Positions 37,005 to 61,328 of a stretch of 64,000 nt of DNA are shown here, piece by piece. Under the pieces are notes generated by a model. It ran no database searches, was not told where the DNA came from, and was given only the letters and a program-made list of their open reading frames with translations. Both the position numbers and the translations under genes were made by a program. The stretch comes from a virus, in the IMG/VR virus record IMGVR_UViG_3300037521_000114, positions 37,195-101,194 of that record; one strand, 5' to 3'. The first letter of the stretch is position 1; the number at the start of each line of letters is the position of its first letter.

Positions 37005-37353
37005 TGGTTTTTGCGTTTTTAATGTAAATTTTCCATTTATGAATTTCCTTATTCCTCTGAATACGAGGATTCTCTTGACGAGCCTTGAACTCCTTGGATA
37101 CCTTCTGTGAATAGGAACTGATACGAGCATCAATATCCTCCACAGGAAACAGTCGTTCGGTAAACGATTCATATCCGTATTTATTTATAGTCATAAACCT
37201 TACACGTACCTCTTTCCCATCAGAGTACACACCTGCTGTCTTCCAAGTACTCAAGAATTTAGCGTAGAATCTCACAAGCCTATCCAAGTAGATAAGTTTA
37301 CAAACGAGGTCTTGATGTACACCTCCATTGATAAGTTTGAAAACTTTGAGCAT
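36991..37353 (-). CDS. Hypothetical protein
   Basis: 120 aa ORF preceded by a promoter box. Confidence 0.55.
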   Translation of the reverse strand: MLKVFKLINGGVHQDLVCKLIYLDRLVRFYAKFLSTWKTAGVYSDGKEVRVRFMTINKYGYESFTERLFPVEDIDARISSYSQKVSKEFKARQENPRIQRNKEIHKWKIYIKNAKTNADI

Positions 37354-55330: not shown

Positions 55331-55796
55331 CTTTGAGTATAGGTATTGTTTAGCAAAGAAGACAAGAAAGACAGGGAATCCTAAGTGGTGGACTATCAAT
55401 GGTCAAGGACTATATAGTGCTACCCTACATTTCCGAGCCAGAGATAAGCTAACAAAGTATTTCCACAAGTATCTATCAAAATATATCAAGCGACAGATTT
55501 CCAGAGAACAAATTATCGAGCTTAACAATCACATTTTTCCCGGCTCATCCTTAAAACTATCCATTTCCTTAGACATTTACGACATACGTAGAGGCAAGAT
55601 GCCTGACGTGAGTAATCTATGGTTATGGACCAAATGGTTTGAGGACGCTTTGCAGGAGTCACGAATAATTCCGGACGATAATCCGGACTATGTACAGGAA
55701 AGCGGACGCACTCGCTATCATTTCGTTGATAGTCAAGAGGAGCGTAGACTCGTTTTCAAATTGAGACTTATAGATATTAACAAAAAAACCTTATGA
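55302..55796 (+). CDS. RusA-like Holliday junction resolvase
   Basis: PDVSNL..KWFEDAL...IIPDDN. Confidence 0.7.
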   Translation: MNDIIVIVRDFEYRYCLAKKTRKTGNPKWWTINGQGLYSATLHFRARDKLTKYFHKYLSKYIKRQISREQIIELNNHIFPGSSLKLSISLDIYDIRRGKMPDVSNLWLWTKWFEDALQESRIIPDDNPDYVQESGRTRYHFVDSQEERRLVFKLRLIDINKKTL

Positions 55797-56578
55797 TCAT
55801 GAGGAAAGCAATATTGAAATTGACCACCCAAAAAGACCTGATCAATCATCAAACCGATGCAAGAACATTCGGTGAGCTGAAAAAAGAAATGAAGCAGGTC
55901 AAATGGAGTGGAATGAGGGTAGTGGAACGTTCCACTAAAGCTACTCTTCAGATGGACGATGCTACTCTCCCACAGGGAGATTTCGTCCTGTTTCTTGTAC
56001 CTGAGAAGGTCAAGAGTGGAAAGAAAACCAGTGGTGGTACTGAGGAACTCAGCAAGAATATTGAAGAGTGTTCCTACAATGAGTGTAGGAGTCACATGAG
56101 CTGGTTGAACCGGAACAAGGATGCAAATCTGGATATGTCCGGTGGTACTGCTTCCCTTCAGATGCAGTTGAGCAAGTATTACAAGAAGAATCCTGCTGGT
56201 ACATCTGCTACTAAGAAAGTAGCTCCAAAAGCAGCTCCTAAAGCTGAGGCTAAGAAGCCTGTAGCAAAGAAGCCTGAACCTGCTCCTGAAGCTGTTCCTG
56301 AAATGAGCAAGAAGGAGAAGAAAGCTGCTAAAAAGGCTGCGAAAGCTGCTAAAAATCAGCAAGAAGAAGCTCCTGTACCAACCGATCCTATCGAGATCAT
56401 TGAAGCATCTCGTGAGAAGATCAACAAGGCTGTTGATCAGATCGTGCTGGAATTGATTGAGAATGGTGGAACTGTACCTGCTGTACTTCAGTACACTGAG
56501 GATGATCTCAACAAAGAGATGAATAAAATCCACAATGCACTGAGAACCAGTAGGACTAATGCAGTTTACATCCAGTAG
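55793..56578 (+). CDS. Putative ubiquitin-like (beta-grasp) protein precursor with C-terminal extension
   Basis: First ~76 aa follow a beta-grasp pattern (TFGELKKEM helix, DDATLP, FVLFLVP strand) ending KVKSG; then a small helical domain and a K/A/P-rich tail; first gene of the E2-JAB-E1 cluster. Confidence 0.65.
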   Translation: MIMRKAILKLTTQKDLINHQTDARTFGELKKEMKQVKWSGMRVVERSTKATLQMDDATLPQGDFVLFLVPEKVKSGKKTSGGTEELSKNIEECSYNECRSHMSWLNRNKDANLDMSGGTASLQMQLSKYYKKNPAGTSATKKVAPKAAPKAEAKKPVAKKPEPAPEAVPEMSKKEKKAAKKAAKAAKNQQEEAPVPTDPIEIIEASREKINKAVDQIVLELIENGGTVPAVLQYTEDDLNKEMNKIHNALRTSRTNAVYIQ

Positions 56579-56653: not shown

Positions 56654-58687
56654 ATGAACATAGATCAAAACGAAAGACCTGAAGAAGGACCTGATGAAGA
56701 GGAAATTACTGATCATCAAGCTGTTGCTGATGTACTTAGTAATGGAGAAACTTATGAGAATCTTACTTTAGATGGTTTAAGAGAAGTTGTAGAGGATGTT
56801 TTAGGAGAAGCAGATGAGGAAGTTGTACAAGAAATGGCTCAAGTTGAAAGGATTTTAGATGCTTCTGATACAGCAAGAGTATCACGGATTGATACGTCAA
56901 TGATTCCACCGGGAATGAGTGTAGAAGATTATGTAGAACATTATCGAGCTACAGGAACTCTTATTACTGAATCCACTGCTATTCCATCATCTTATCAAGG
57001 TAGTTCTACTGACGCAACTAATGTGTCATCACCTACTCAGACAACTGATGCAATAGCACTTGATGAGGAACTGGCTCAAACTATCGGTAGATTGGTTGAT
57101 GAGGGTACAGTTGTAATTGATCCAGAGGAAGGTGCTGCTGTCATATTAGGTGGAGAGGAACAAAAACCTGAACCACCAAAAGATGAGACTCCCAAGCAGA
57201 GGAGAGCAAGACAGCGTAAGGAAAATCCTGATCATTACAAGCAGGTTGCAACCCTTCATCTTGCTGATAAGCATATTCGTCAGAAAATGCAACTCAGGCA
57301 AAAGACCAGAGTAATGATTAGTGATGGTACTGTGAAGCCTAATGAACTGTTTATCACTACCAATGGGATTATATTCTCAACAAGTGATGAGATTACTTTC
57401 AACAATCCTAATATGACACAGCACACTATCATATTTGACAAGAACTTTAATGAGATTTCTTCTGTACGAAGTAAATCACATCGCTTTAAGCGAGTGTACC
57501 TGAAGCAGATAGGTCTCGATAATGTTCGTGCAAATCCTAATATTCATAAAGGAGTTGTCGTTGAAAGAGATGTGTTTATGGAATCCAAAGGTCGGAAATT
57601 GAAAATTATCCGAAGAAAAGATATGCCTTTCCATAGTATTATGCAATGCAGGAAAATTATCGTAAAAGGTTTTGAAAGAGCAGAGAGAAGTATCAACTGG
57701 TTAGTATCAAGTTTAAGGAATGTTTTCCCGGAAGAAGACTTTGATGTATTCTATCCGGTAAGCAACCATGATACTGAAGTTATGTTCACTATTATGATGC
57801 GTTTCAGAGATATTGAAATAACAAATTCGATTGAACTGACACATCAGATTGGTGATATGATTGTCAAGATGTATGGTACTTGTTATCCTACAAAAGAAGG
57901 TGTTAGGGTAGCAATGTCATCAGGTGTATATGGAACCAGAATGACATTCGATATAACAGATGCTATTTCAAAATATCAACATTCTCACCTTCCTTCAGCA
58001 CTGAACAACTTTAATAGTTTCTGTACAGGAGAACAATATTATGGATCAGACGGAATGTTAGATAACATGACATTTGAATCACTTCTGTATCGTCTTGGTG
58101 AGCTTGTCAGGTGGGAATCCCTTGAGGGTGGACCACACATGAGGATGGAGAATATTTCATTACTTGGAAATAGGTTTAGTCTAAAAAGCGATTTTAGTCG
58201 TAAAGACGGATACACAAAAAGGCTTATTCATGTTATCAAAGAGAAGCCTGAAGGATTCGATGTATTTGCAAGCTGCTTCTCTATCTATAATGATAAGGGT
58301 GTAGTACGTTTTAGAGCTGATAAACCAAGATTTTACTCGACATTTATTAAAACTATTGGTAAGCAGAATATCAAGAATATTCATGCTTCCTCAGGTATGG
58401 ATTTATATTCTTATGATGAATCTACTAATGTTTTCAAGATGATTAAATCACGAAGGGTAAATAGTCCGAAAGAAATGCGTAAAAAGGCAATCGCTAATTT
58501 ACAATCCTTTCAGCCTATCTATATGAATGGAAAGTATAATCGTATAATACTTGATAGTACTGATTCTGAAGACCTTATAAATCAATTAAATTTGTGCCCT
58601 CATCCTAATACGATGGATGATATTGCGAACCATATACTGTTTAAATTAACTGAAAAATTAAATGAGCATGGGAAAACCAGCGAATAA
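56654..58687 (+). CDS. Putative E2/UBC-like conjugating enzyme with long acidic N-terminal extension
   Basis: YQHSHLP-x-FCTG (H443-x-H445, C457) resembles the E2 HPN/HPH...C motif; then a helix and WESLEGGP; sits between Ubl and JAB genes. Confidence 0.6.
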   Translation: MNIDQNERPEEGPDEEEITDHQAVADVLSNGETYENLTLDGLREVVEDVLGEADEEVVQEMAQVERILDASDTARVSRIDTSMIPPGMSVEDYVEHYRATGTLITESTAIPSSYQGSSTDATNVSSPTQTTDAIALDEELAQTIGRLVDEGTVVIDPEEGAAVILGGEEQKPEPPKDETPKQRRARQRKENPDHYKQVATLHLADKHIRQKMQLRQKTRVMISDGTVKPNELFITTNGIIFSTSDEITFNNPNMTQHTIIFDKNFNEISSVRSKSHRFKRVYLKQIGLDNVRANPNIHKGVVVERDVFMESKGRKLKIIRRKDMPFHSIMQCRKIIVKGFERAERSINWLVSSLRNVFPEEDFDVFYPVSNHDTEVMFTIMMRFRDIEITNSIELTHQIGDMIVKMYGTCYPTKEGVRVAMSSGVYGTRMTFDITDAISKYQHSHLPSALNNFNSFCTGEQYYGSDGMLDNMTFESLLYRLGELVRWESLEGGPHMRMENISLLGNRFSLKSDFSRKDGYTKRLIHVIKEKPEGFDVFASCFSIYNDKGVVRFRADKPRFYSTFIKTIGKQNIKNIHASSGMDLYSYDESTNVFKMIKSRRVNSPKEMRKKAIANLQSFQPIYMNGKYNRIILDSTDSEDLINQLNLCPHPNTMDDIANHILFKLTEKLNEHGKTSE

Positions 58688-59870
58688 TAAAAAAGAGAAG
58701 GTTGAATATCCCCTGTATGAGATGGAAGAAAAAGGTAAATTGATTTTGCCACCTGAAATCTTATCACAGATTACATTCCTTCATTCCCATGTTGGGAGAA
58801 CGGAGTGGTCAGGGATGCTATTGTATGATGTGATCAATGGTAATCCTTCAAAGCCTGAAACTTTCGAGCTTGAGGTAAAACACATTTTCCTGATGGACAT
58901 TGGTTCAGCAGCTTATACCGAATATGAAGCAGATGGTGACATTGTGGACATCTATGACAACATTCCTGAAGCAATGGAATGGAAGACAGGTCATGTTCAC
59001 AGTCATCATGATATGACCACATATTTCTCTACTACAGATATGGGTGAACTTCACGATAACGTGGATAAGCACAACTATTATCTGTCTCTGATCGTGGCTT
59101 TCAACGGCAGTTATACTGCTAAAGTTGCGTTCCTGAGTGACATGGAGACTACATCCAAGATGACTTTCAAGGATGATTCTGGTAACATCAAGAGTTTCAA
59201 GCAGAAGAAAATGGAGAGGCACATGGTTGTTATCAACATGAGGATTCTGTTTGCTGAACTTGGTGGATTCTTTTCTGCTCGTTTAACTGAACTTGTTGCA
59301 AAAGAAGAAGCAGCAAAGGAGGCAGCAGAAAAGGCAGCAGAAAAGGAAAGAACGAAAGCTGGTTATAAATATGGAGGATATGGTGGTCAACACAATAGTC
59401 ATTTCCATAATCAGAATATGGATGAACTTCCACGTCATTCTATCGGGAGTAAAATCATTCCTGACAAAATGACATCTTGGGAGATCGAAAACCTGACAAA
59501 AAGCATATTGATGCTTGAGGCTCATCCAGCAGGAAACGTCTATTCAATTCTGCATCAGGTGGCTCGTGAGGATCAGAATATGGACCTTTATCCAGACTAT
59601 TTAATGTGTAATGCCGAAGCTATAATTGATGAGTATTTTGATGATCCTTTAGCTGACGATGAATATGCTATCGTCATAAAAGAATGTATCATGTGTATCA
59701 AGAAATACGAAGGCGTTGTTGCTCTTGCACCGATTACCACAGTAATTTGTGAATCTCTCGCTGTAATTGCTCAAGGATACGAGGAAGGCGGTGTGCGTGA
59801 GGTTGACCAAGAGGATGAAGGAAGCATAGCAGCACAACTGGAAAAAGCAGAAAAGGAGCTTAAATTATGA
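58662..59870 (+). CDS. JAB/MPN (JAMM) metalloprotease
   Basis: TEWSG glutamate plus HSHHDMTTYFSTTD, an exact HxHx7Sx2D motif. Confidence 0.88.
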   Translation: MSMGKPANNKKEKVEYPLYEMEEKGKLILPPEILSQITFLHSHVGRTEWSGMLLYDVINGNPSKPETFELEVKHIFLMDIGSAAYTEYEADGDIVDIYDNIPEAMEWKTGHVHSHHDMTTYFSTTDMGELHDNVDKHNYYLSLIVAFNGSYTAKVAFLSDMETTSKMTFKDDSGNIKSFKQKKMERHMVVINMRILFAELGGFFSARLTELVAKEEAAKEAAEKAAEKERTKAGYKYGGYGGQHNSHFHNQNMDELPRHSIGSKIIPDKMTSWEIENLTKSILMLEAHPAGNVYSILHQVAREDQNMDLYPDYLMCNAEAIIDEYFDDPLADDEYAIVIKECIMCIKKYEGVVALAPITTVICESLAVIAQGYEEGGVREVDQEDEGSIAAQLEKAEKELKL

Positions 59871-60556
59871 TAGATGTAAAACAATCAAGATTCCGTGATG
59901 CTTCGTGGTTTGAGAAACTATCGAAGTACACGGTTCCTATCATTATTGGAGGCGTGGGAGGAATAGGTAGCTGGTTGACTCTTTACCTTTCGAGGATGAT
60001 GGGACCAGACAGCTACCTTATTCTCTACGACTTTGATAAAGTAGAGGAAATAAACATGGCTGGACAACTGTTCAGGATTCAGGATATAGGTTTGCTGAAA
60101 GTTGCTGCTGTAAAAGATGTAGTAGCAGCGTTCAGTGGTTACGATAAGATCGTAGCACAACCTGATCGGTATGATGAGGATTCCCTGAGGAGTCCTGTCA
60201 TGTTCTCCTGTTTCGATAACATGAAAGCGAGAAAGGTAATGTTCGAGAATTGGTTACAGGAAGCTGAGAAGTATCCTGAATCCATATTCATCGACGGTAG
60301 GTTAAACGCAGAGCAATTCCAAGTATATTATGTTACTCTTGAATGGGCAAAAAAGTATTCCGACACTTACCTTTTTGATGATGCAGAGGTCGAGGACGCA
60401 GCGTGTAGTTATAAGCAAACCAGTCATTTTGCTGCCTCCATCGCTGCGAAAATGGTCCAAGGATTCACGGGGTTTCTTGATGATACTTACGAACTCCCGT
60501 TTCGGTACGAAGAGATCGGACCATTGTTCTTAACAGAAATTGATAATGGAAGCTAA
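59867..60556 (+). CDS. ThiF/MoeB/E1-like adenylating enzyme
   Basis: GVGGIGSW, DFDKVEEINMAGQ, K, CFDNMKAR, DGR, candidate catalytic Cys in DAACSYK. Confidence 0.9.
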   Translation: MIDVKQSRFRDASWFEKLSKYTVPIIIGGVGGIGSWLTLYLSRMMGPDSYLILYDFDKVEEINMAGQLFRIQDIGLLKVAAVKDVVAAFSGYDKIVAQPDRYDEDSLRSPVMFSCFDNMKARKVMFENWLQEAEKYPESIFIDGRLNAEQFQVYYVTLEWAKKYSDTYLFDDAEVEDAACSYKQTSHFAASIAAKMVQGFTGFLDDTYELPFRYEEIGPLFLTEIDNGS

Positions 60557-61328
60557 GGATATTTGCAACATTCGTGACAGTGTCTATAATGGGTCACATG
60601 CGATAGATTCCGAGATTGGATTTAATATTCATGACGGATATTACCCTTTGCCTCGTATTAAGACACAGTACGATTCATCAAAGAACCCTTATTTTAGAAC
60701 TGCCTGTCAAAGTCAATATGGAGGATCACGAATTACTGATAACGTATATTACCAAATAAGTGGTCCGGGACAATCCATGAAATATAAGAAGACAAGACGC
60801 TATAGTGATGCAAAATTTGTCAACTTCTATTTCGGATTTTTTACTGCATTGGGAATTACTCAACTTGATTATCTTCCAACAACTATGCTTGGTTCAACAG
60901 AACACATGATGTTTGGAGAACCAGACGTTTTCTGTATAGGAGTAGTTAAAGTAGGTGCACCTATTGATGTTAAATTGACGTATCAAAATCATGCTCGTCG
61001 AAGTAGTCGTTACGTGTATCATTCAACCAGTTATGAAATAAAGATAAACTACAAGGATATTATTATTCTTGTTTCTGAAGAAAAATTACGAAGAGCAGCT
61101 TTTGCAAAGACATATTACACAGCAACCGTAAGAAAAGCAATTTTAGGAAATTTATTGAAACTTCAACGTAAACATGGAATGGCATTTGAAGATGTCCCTG
61201 ACGCATATCTGAAGAATTTCGTAAAAAGTTCTAAGTCAATTAGAACGAACTCCTTAGTTGAAACCTTGACTATCGGTAGAGATATTAAGGAGAATGTATT
61301 TTCTAACCTTAATAAATTAGCAGTATGA
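60540..61328 (+). CDS. Hypothetical protein coupled to the E1 gene
   Basis: 262 aa; overlaps both neighbours. Confidence 0.6.
   Translation: MIMEAKDICNIRDSVYNGSHAIDSEIGFNIHDGYYPLPRIKTQYDSSKNPYFRTACQSQYGGSRITDNVYYQISGPGQSMKYKKTRRYSDAKFVNFYFGFFTALGITQLDYLPTTMLGSTEHMMFGEPDVFCIGVVKVGAPIDVKLTYQNHARRSSRYVYHSTSYEIKINYKDIIILVSEEKLRRAAFAKTYYTATVRKAILGNLLKLQRKHGMAFEDVPDAYLKNFVKSSKSIRTNSLVETLTIGRDIKENVFSNLNKLAV

Follow-up and report, generated by a model that had tools for sequence, protein, structure and literature searches.

We report here a gene of a crAss-like phage that encodes a ubiquitin-like (Ubl) domain at the N-terminus of a pre-protein, followed by a passenger with a SAP-like module. The gene lies at 55793–56578 on the plus strand of the 64,000-nucleotide stretch of DNA that was analysed (hereafter the window), which spans positions 37,195 to 101,194 of the IMG/VR virus record IMGVR_UViG_3300037521_000114 and is the right-hand 64 kb of this 101,194-base phage record, rated 100% complete by CheckV. 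The arrangement shares the logic of the bacterial Bub system, and differs from it in its passenger, in having separate enzymes, in having no BubE, and in its viral owner. We consider it likely that the pre-protein is cut after Gly76 by a JAB/JAMM metallopeptidase encoded in the same gene cassette, and that the Ubl is then activated by an E1 enzyme and transferred onward, with release of the 185-residue tail.

The gene encodes 261 aa plus a stop codon, and its ATG overlaps the stop codon of a RusA-like gene (ATGA); the public gene call begins two residues downstream (259 aa). An earlier note, made from the letters of the window alone, had described a Ubl-like domain ending in an internal Gly, followed by a helical module, a Lys/Ala/Pro tract and an acidic helical end, and our analysis reproduced its coordinates, the position of Gly76, and each of these parts. 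The N-terminal domain (residues 1–76, at 55793–56020, with the tail P70-E-K-V-K-S-G76) indeed has the ubiquitin fold. AlphaFold2, supplied with 37 homologues, predicts a beta-beta-alpha-beta-beta grasp over residues 4–70, comprising strands at 4–10, 16–21, 41–45, and 64–70 and a helix at 26–32 (predicted local distance difference test, pLDDT, of 86–96 by block), with residues 75–78 as a flexible tail (pLDDT <50). Foldseek matches this model in the PDB to ubiquitin, NEDD8, ISG15, and DIX domains, over 73–84 aligned columns and with target-normalised template-modelling (TM) scores of 0.62–0.68. Mean identity in the domain is 77% among close homologues.

The Gly that ends this domain (codon GGA at 56018–56020, counting residues from the first Met) is internal to the protein, with S80-G81-G82 downstream. 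We collected 116 close homologues; the column analysis used 117 aligned sequences, 115 of which cover Gly76, and all 115 carry it (column entropy 0). Across positions 69–76 (V-P-E-K-V-K-S-G) the entropy is 0–0.33 bits, and at position 77 it is 3.05 bits. The earlier note had proposed asking whether conservation drops right after K-S-G, and had made its reading depend on a conserved Gly; the step from 0 to 3.05 bits and the unbroken Gly column answer both in its favor. The conservation extends to remote relatives. Searching 1.84 billion representatives with a profile retrieved 1128 clusters at E ≤ 1e-3 (305 at E ≤ 1e-10), from which 141 of the best cluster representatives, at 19–46% identity to the window copy, were taken as a distant set. 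Gly is kept in 140 of these 141, and the sole exception, K-S-A-G, has it shifted by +1; such retention goes well beyond what chance would give. Lys74 is kept in 130, and position 75 holds Ser in 98 sequences, Ala in 25, and Gly in only 9, such that Ser or Ala occupies it in 123.

Every full-length relative has an extension beyond this Gly, with a median of 117 aa and a 5th percentile of 64; none stops at the Gly. Neither a stand-alone Ubl nor a stand-alone tail was found among shorter proteins, the four short matches being truncations on contigs under ∼3 kb. Since the Ubl is made with further sequence behind it, JAB must probably cut after the Gly to arm it. The predicted scissile junction, Gly76–Lys77 (56018–56023), is indicated by the conservation of the Gly, by the jump in entropy, and by the JAB contacts in the complex model described below. 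What follows it in the window is a variable linker (residues 77–93, at 56021–56071), which includes the clade-specific S80-G81-G82; among relatives the linker ranges from 0 to ∼15 residues in length, with 35% mean identity.

The same junction can be read in two cultured phages, crAss001 and FpV4. A tblastn search with the precursor against 50,697 phage records gave no match, and the homologues in these two phages were located by gene position, starting from matches to the E1. The crAss001 protein gp79 reads ...PEKKIKSG and continues AMSRAE... after the Gly, and FpV4 gp53 reads ...RPKQVKSG and continues GRGDG....

The residue just after the Gly (P1') is mostly small in the distant relatives (Ala in 40, Ser in 18, Val in 18, and Gly in 11 of 141), and is Lys or Arg in the closest relatives of the window copy, the forms of ∼230–318 aa. 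This difference may reflect co-evolution with JAB. We also considered whether frameshifting or termination at the junction could yield a free Ubl, and rejected this, as 56010–56040 holds no classical slippery site or nearby −1 stop.

The predicted processing enzyme, a JAB/JAMM metallopeptidase, is encoded at 58662–59870 on the plus strand. Its JAMM signature, E48 ... H113-S-H115-x7-S123-x2-D126, is exact, and is invariant in ten aligned JAB copies. The pairing of JAB with the Ubl, on which the earlier note relied, holds up, with an intact, invariant JAMM motif and a ThiF-type E1 downstream in every locus examined. We predicted the complex of JAB residues 1–215 with precursor residues 1–135, both given as alignments, with Zn riding along. 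The pair scored 0.77, against 0.00 for the best of three controls, a mark that 58 of 80 solved complexes attain, as do 2 of 110 mismatched pairs, though our use of own alignments and a riding ligand departs from the calibration of the tool; moreover, because JAMM–ubiquitin complexes have already been solved, such a pass indicates likeness rather than binding. Three runs had at least 89% of contacts in common, with partner pLDDT of at least 82. The confident interface joins JAB residues 48, 111, 113, 123, and 125–126, which comprise the catalytic Glu, Zn ligands, and the motif Ser, with precursor residues 69–78, and the model would thereby place the Gly76–Lys77 bond at the active site.

Beyond its catalytic part, JAB has a conserved C-terminal helical domain (residues ∼265–402, at 59455–59870) with invariant P267, L278, Y294, L297, L314, F326, L330, E334, and V338. 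This domain could dock the precursor tail or p677, the product of the gene between the Ubl and JAB genes.

Two alternatives can be weighed on the conservation and the complex model. One is that the cut falls after S80-G81-G82, giving a classical Gly-Gly end, and that Gly76 is not the cut site. The second SGG, which the earlier note had pointed out, is present in the window, looks like the Gly-Gly terminus of ubiquitin, and is retained by the closest relatives; yet it is occupied in only 64–70 of the 117 aligned sequences and is missing from the 190–200 aa forms and from all distant members. It is clade-specific and, in our view, no part of the conserved core. The confident contacts in the complex model also end at residue 78. 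With occupancy so patchy and contacts ending there, we discarded this site, and regard a cut at it as extremely improbable. The other alternative is that no processing takes place, the full-length protein being a DNA-associated factor with a ubiquitin-fold adaptor, and JAB and E1 acting elsewhere. Many beta-grasp domains are non-conjugated adaptors, and the neighbors of the gene are replication and recombination genes, as would suit such a factor. This account would however leave unexplained the invariant Gly at the tail of the fold followed by a hypervariable linker (across ∼1100 clusters), the strict linkage to an active-looking JAB and E1, and the placement of residues 69–78 in the JAMM site, and we judge it very unlikely.

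In the mechanism that we favor, the phage JAMM peptidase, encoded two genes downstream, would bind the Ubl and cut Gly76–Lys77, and the freed Gly76 carboxylate would be adenylated by the adjoining small ThiF-type E1. The Ubl would then be handed on, possibly via Cys180 of the E1 and via p677, which has an HSH...C arrangement. The cut would also free the 185-residue C-terminal piece, made up of the linker, a SAP-like helix-loop-helix, a disordered Lys/Ala/Pro spacer, and an acidic hairpin. This tail may be a separate DNA-associated protein, or may, before the cut, anchor the precursor to DNA or to the enzymes. The precursor form makes three predictions, namely an exact cut after K-S-G, a Ser-Gly remnant that would be left on target lysines after trypsin treatment (visible by mass spectrometry), and a second product, which would possibly tie the pathway to DNA.

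The E1 (59867–60556, plus strand) is a minimal ThiF-type adenylating enzyme of 229 aa that scores 46.7 bits with Pfam ThiF (cut-off 28.1). Its motifs GGVGGIGS (28–35), FDN (116–118), and IDGR, as well as its invariant Cys180, are present in crAss001 gp76 and FpV4 gp50 too. It is without CxxC zinc motifs, and Cys180 sits in the motif C-S/T-x-K-Q-T. PADLOC gives weak matches of the E1 to the Cap2 E1–E2 and to BilD. By tblastn against the same 50,697 phage records, the E1 matched 78 records; crAss001 gp76, FpV4 gp50, and the counterparts in many other records are named “thiamine biosynthesis protein”, a label that is probably misleading.

That label bears on a further alternative, in which the Ubl carries sulphur in the manner of ThiS, MoaD, or CysO: JAB would trim it, the E1 would adenylate it, and its thiocarboxylate would feed a thio-modification with p677 as the sulphur user. 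Trimming by JAB enzymes is known for sulphur carriers, by Mec+ acting on CysO and by QbsD acting on QbsE, and known carriers end in Gly-Gly. The best family matches of the E1, to ThiF and MoeB adenylyltransferases, speak for this alternative, as do the name given to the E1 in public records and the lack of a recognisable E2 (a genome search with PF00179 was also empty, but its control matched nowhere, so that it is uninformative). Systems that combine JAB with sulphur carriers have also been described (PMC1779556). On the other side, the tail in the window is K-S-G rather than Gly-Gly, the pre-protein has no Pfam match to ThiS or MoaD, and the E1 falls below every NCBIfam ThiF/MoeB cut-off, by far. 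The complete genome has neither a rhodanese (PF00581) nor a PP-loop thiolase (PF01171), with controls matched in 13 and 14 of 14 genomes, although host enzymes could substitute; and a conserved 185-aa passenger is foreign to known sulphur carriers. We therefore hold a sulphur-carrier role to be quite unlikely.

Downstream of the linker, the passenger consists of a SAP-like helix/extended loop/helix module (residues 94–132, at 56072–56188), a Lys/Ala/Pro-rich disordered tract (133–196, at 56189–56380), and an acidic C-terminal helical hairpin (197–261, at 56381–56575; isoelectric point, pI, of 4.75). Its conservation indicates that the passenger is under selection, with mean identities of 58% in the SAP-like module and 42% in the C-terminal helices, against 35% in the linker and 13% in the Lys/Ala/Pro tract. 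The two helices of the module (95–109 and 119–132) have pLDDT >90 in both structure models, and Y95, N96, R99, S100, L105, N106, and G117 do not vary across the alignment of 37 sequences.

The earlier note had guessed at a SAP/HeH-like module, and this gains homology-level support through relatives. Of the 141 family representatives, 12 match the Pfam SAP family (PF02037) at E ≤ 0.01, the best of them at 1.6e-6, and 3 match SAP_new25. In one of these relatives, P0184, the SAP match lies at 101–135, just past K-S-G, at 24.1 bits (cut-off 23.9), and a profile of the window clade (residues 90–134) matches the same protein at 100–137 (independent E-value, i-E, of 2.5e-6). The clade profile and Pfam SAP both fall on the same stretch of P0184, with which the window module can also be aligned, and homology to SAP is thereby supported transitively. 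In a structure comparison against 48,161 PDB representatives (VIA-align), SAP domains rank top, and further neighbors include the Rho N-terminal domain, the SLX4 SAP domain, the C-terminus of T4 endonuclease VII, and a LEM domain. The SAP-like module probably binds nucleic acid.

The window module is like the SAP domains of Tho1, PIAS1, Ku70, and FAN1, and like the Rho N-terminal and LEM domains, in its two predicted helices, its length of ∼35–40 residues, its Leu/Arg pattern, and its loop Gly. It differs from SAP in falling below the Pfam threshold, in its longer first helix and loop, and in an invariant signature of its own, Y-N-x-x-R-S-H.

The remainder of the passenger is more variable. 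Residues 141–170 are disordered, and the Lys/Ala/Pro tract (pLDDT <50, pI 10.0) is clade-specific, varies in length, and is missing from the forms of ∼190–200 aa. The earlier note had called this tract histone-H1-like, which is right as to composition; as a conserved functional element we ruled it out, given its low identity and its loss from the short forms. The C-terminal helices (199–223 and 236–250) retain I203, E204, R207, N211, D215, L239, E242, and L250 within the clade, and their profile is detected in 17 of 145 family representatives. The hairpin has no informative structural neighbor in the PDB comparison or by Foldseek against PDB and BFVD.

Several results weigh against the reading in which a Ubl for conjugation is cut from a DNA-binding passenger. 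The structural similarity to SAP domains is weak, with Z of 4.0–4.6 (4.6 for Hcc-1 and SF3B2, 4.3 for FAN1, 4.1 for E1B-AP5, and 4.0 for Tho1 and PIAS1), and two-helix motifs are common; when the tail model was compared with PDB and BFVD by Foldseek, no match reached E ≤ 0.001. The low Z, the small size of the motif, and the lack of a significant Foldseek match lead us to call residues 94–132 SAP-like with moderate confidence only. The module profile detects 44 of 145 family representatives (60 at i-E <0.1), in which the module starts a median of 11 residues past the Gly, and some relatives have just a short acidic helical tail. A DNA-binding passenger is thus not universal in the family, while an extension of some kind is. 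As for the Ubl, its tail terminates in Ser-Gly, not Gly-Gly. The window pre-protein has no Pfam match at E ≤ 0.1, and curated Ubl families (including ubiquitin, ThiS, MoaD, and Urm1) gave no Pfam or NCBIfam match to it at the same threshold; nor did PADLOC give any meaningful match for the precursor. A profile search against PDB sequences found no solved relative of the pre-protein, the searches with the tail, the whole protein, and p677 returning only coiled-coil or designed-helix noise. The complex score may stem from model memory of the solved JAMM–ubiquitin complexes, and no recognisable E2 or target appeared among the cassette proteins in family-library searches. Finally, what we observed by computation comprises the fold, the invariance of the Gly and the loss of conservation past it, the gene order, the catalytic motifs, and a predicted JAB–tail complex, and from these we infer cleavage, activation, conjugation, DNA binding, and the fate of the tail.

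The variable make-up of the extension bears most directly on what the tail is for. It may be a pro-region or tether, holding the precursor on DNA or on JAB, E1, or p677 and keeping the Gly blocked, with no function after the cut. An extension is universal but its composition is not, as just described for the SAP-like module, the C-terminal helices, and the short acidic tails, so that the universal need seems to be a blocked Gly plus a helical tail rather than one particular passenger; the conserved C-terminal helical domain of JAB could dock such a tail. Against this stand the high conservation of the SAP-like module within the clade, where seven invariant residues fall within 39, and the precedent of Type I Bub, in which the passenger is a working enzyme. 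We rate a mere tether as somewhat unlikely, if the strongest of the alternatives considered here. The fusion might also be a delivery device, its SAP-like tail stationing the precursor at phage DNA under replication or at the nucleoid of the host. We put this forward as a speculative and rather improbable extension of the mechanism. If so, JAB cleavage and E1 activation would free an activated tag at that DNA site, and Crassvirales would be running a DNA-localised protein-tagging pathway of their own, which could be aimed at proteins of the host nucleoid or of host defence, or at their own replication proteins.

The earlier note had likened the precursor to eukaryotic ubiquitin–ribosomal protein fusions. 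This parallel is one of analogy only. A nearer precedent, and one backed by experiment, is the Ubl–E2 pre-protein BubAB of bacteria: JAB of the BubCD protein cuts it directly behind the conserved G229, as determined by Edman sequencing, whereas catalytic mutants leave it uncut. The cut exposes the Gly for the E1, and both the Ubl and the passenger that result are active (Ye et al. 2024; PMC11601596). The window system resembles Bub in its N-terminal Ubl within a fusion, its conserved junction Gly, the JAB/JAMM enzyme in the operon, and its ThiF-type E1 (in Bub, a homodimeric ThiF/UBA5 type). No sequence relationship was detected between the window pre-protein and Bub, and the differences are several. 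The passenger is an E2 in Bub, whereas here it is all-helical, consisting of the SAP-like module, disorder, and the hairpin. JAB and E1 are fused in Bub (BubCD), whereas here they are encoded by separate, overlapping genes. Bub also has the DUF6527 protease BubE, whereas no DUF6527 match was found here among neighboring proteins (E ≤ 0.1). Bub is bacterial and tied to defence or stress regulators, whereas the present system lies in the replication module of a lytic phage.

A phage precedent is tail-assembly related. Iyer, Burroughs and Aravind predicted in 2006 that JAB cleaves lambda TAPI at a Gly inside the protein (PMC1779556), and TAPI of lambda and T1, with its TAPK JAB, is like our pre-protein in being phage-encoded and in combining a Ubl with a conserved end Gly, a linker, a small C-terminal domain, and a neighboring JAB. 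TAPI differs in its tail-assembly context, where ours is among replication genes, and in having no E1, a Gly-rich linker, and another C-terminal domain. Neither PHROG nor Pfam links the pre-protein to TAPI, and its sole PHROG matches are to the families 15560 and 31715, both of unknown function.

Among cellular systems, Bil (BilABCD) and the Type II CBASS proteins Cap2 and Cap3 likewise combine a Ubl or a substrate C-terminus with JAB and E1, and JAB can trim pre-proteins in them; they differ in belonging to host defence, in having a recognisable E2, in their larger E1s, and in having short Ubl extensions or none, whereas the present system is viral and has a conserved 185-aa module. UBA52, RPS27A, and archaeal pro-ubiquitin are also Ubl precursors cleaved after a Gly, and in eukaryotes the cut also frees a functional passenger; UBA52 and RPS27A differ in that their passengers are ribosomal proteins and that the cutting enzymes are mostly cysteine deubiquitinases. 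Archaeal pro-ubiquitin is reportedly trimmed by an Rpn11-like JAMM enzyme, with a short extension.

Few viruses are as abundant in the human gut and in sediments as Crassvirales. To our knowledge, prokaryotic ubiquitin-like tagging has been worked out solely for cellular systems, among them sulphur carriers, archaeal SAMPs, Bil, Bub, and CBASS, and our literature search found no published description of a Crassvirales Ubl, JAB, or E1. Here, a blocked Ubl, a candidate trimming JAMM enzyme, and an E1 lie together in the replication module of lytic phages that form a large clade. This clade includes the cultured crAss001 and FpV4, whose public records label the cassette genes “hypothetical” or “thiamine biosynthesis protein”. 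If the proposed mechanism is right, this would be a virus-run counterpart to the ubiquitin-like defences of hosts, and would offer a handle on the biology of these abundant phages.

Gene order was compared across 18 IMG/VR loci, crAss001, and FpV4. Upstream of the pre-protein gene, all 18 IMG/VR loci encode DnaB, an ATPase, a 261-aa protein, a primase, and RusA. Downstream, where the contig continues, come p677, JAB, E1, p262, and an exonuclease VIII-like nuclease, and the order primase, RusA, Ubl, p677, JAB, E1 is kept in each IMG/VR locus that extends far enough. The E1 gene is three genes past the Ubl gene in all nine loci of sufficient length, and in crAss001 and FpV4 as well. The core in crAss001 runs from gp80 (primase) through gp79, gp78, and gp77 (“metalloprotease”) to gp76 (“thiamine biosynthesis protein, ThiF”), and that in FpV4 from gp55 (primase) through UDG to gp53 and on to gp50.

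Start and stop codons overlap as ATGA at RusA/Ubl (55793–55796), JAB/E1 (59867–59870), and p262/exonuclease (61325–61328), and the p677 and JAB genes share 26 bases (58662–58687). Such overlaps along the cassette suggest translational coupling.

The conserved cassette protein p677 (56654–58687, plus strand) is without an assigned family or fold: no family was found via Pfam, PHROGs function, NCBIfam, PADLOC, the PDB profile search, or the ESM Atlas. The Atlas gave no usable feature matches for either the tail or p677, and its models of these were poor (pLDDT 0.59 and 0.33). Invariant in p677 are Y441, H443-S-H445, F456-C457, and W487-ESLEGGP494, and the core Y-x-H-S-H ... F-C-x-G459 ... W-E-S-L-E-G-G-P494 is common to crAss001 gp78 and FpV4 gp52; the N-terminal ∼200–300 aa are acidic and variable. 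The spacing HSH...C is loosely reminiscent of the HPN...C of E2 enzymes. It is possible that p677 is a carrier or ligase, or else a target. Downstream of E1, p262 (60540–61328, plus strand) is syntenic and fast-diverging, at 23–40% identity in relatives, and matched no family in any library searched (including Pfam, NCBIfam, and PADLOC).

Two homologues of the pre-protein, P0077 and P0082, bear the NCBI label “MAG: Candidatus Heimdallarchaeaceae archaeon”. Their sequences are nested inside the phage family, and they are thus probably from phage contigs binned into metagenome-assembled genomes of Asgard archaea; phage homologues labelled in this way could mislead surveys of archaeal ubiquitin systems.

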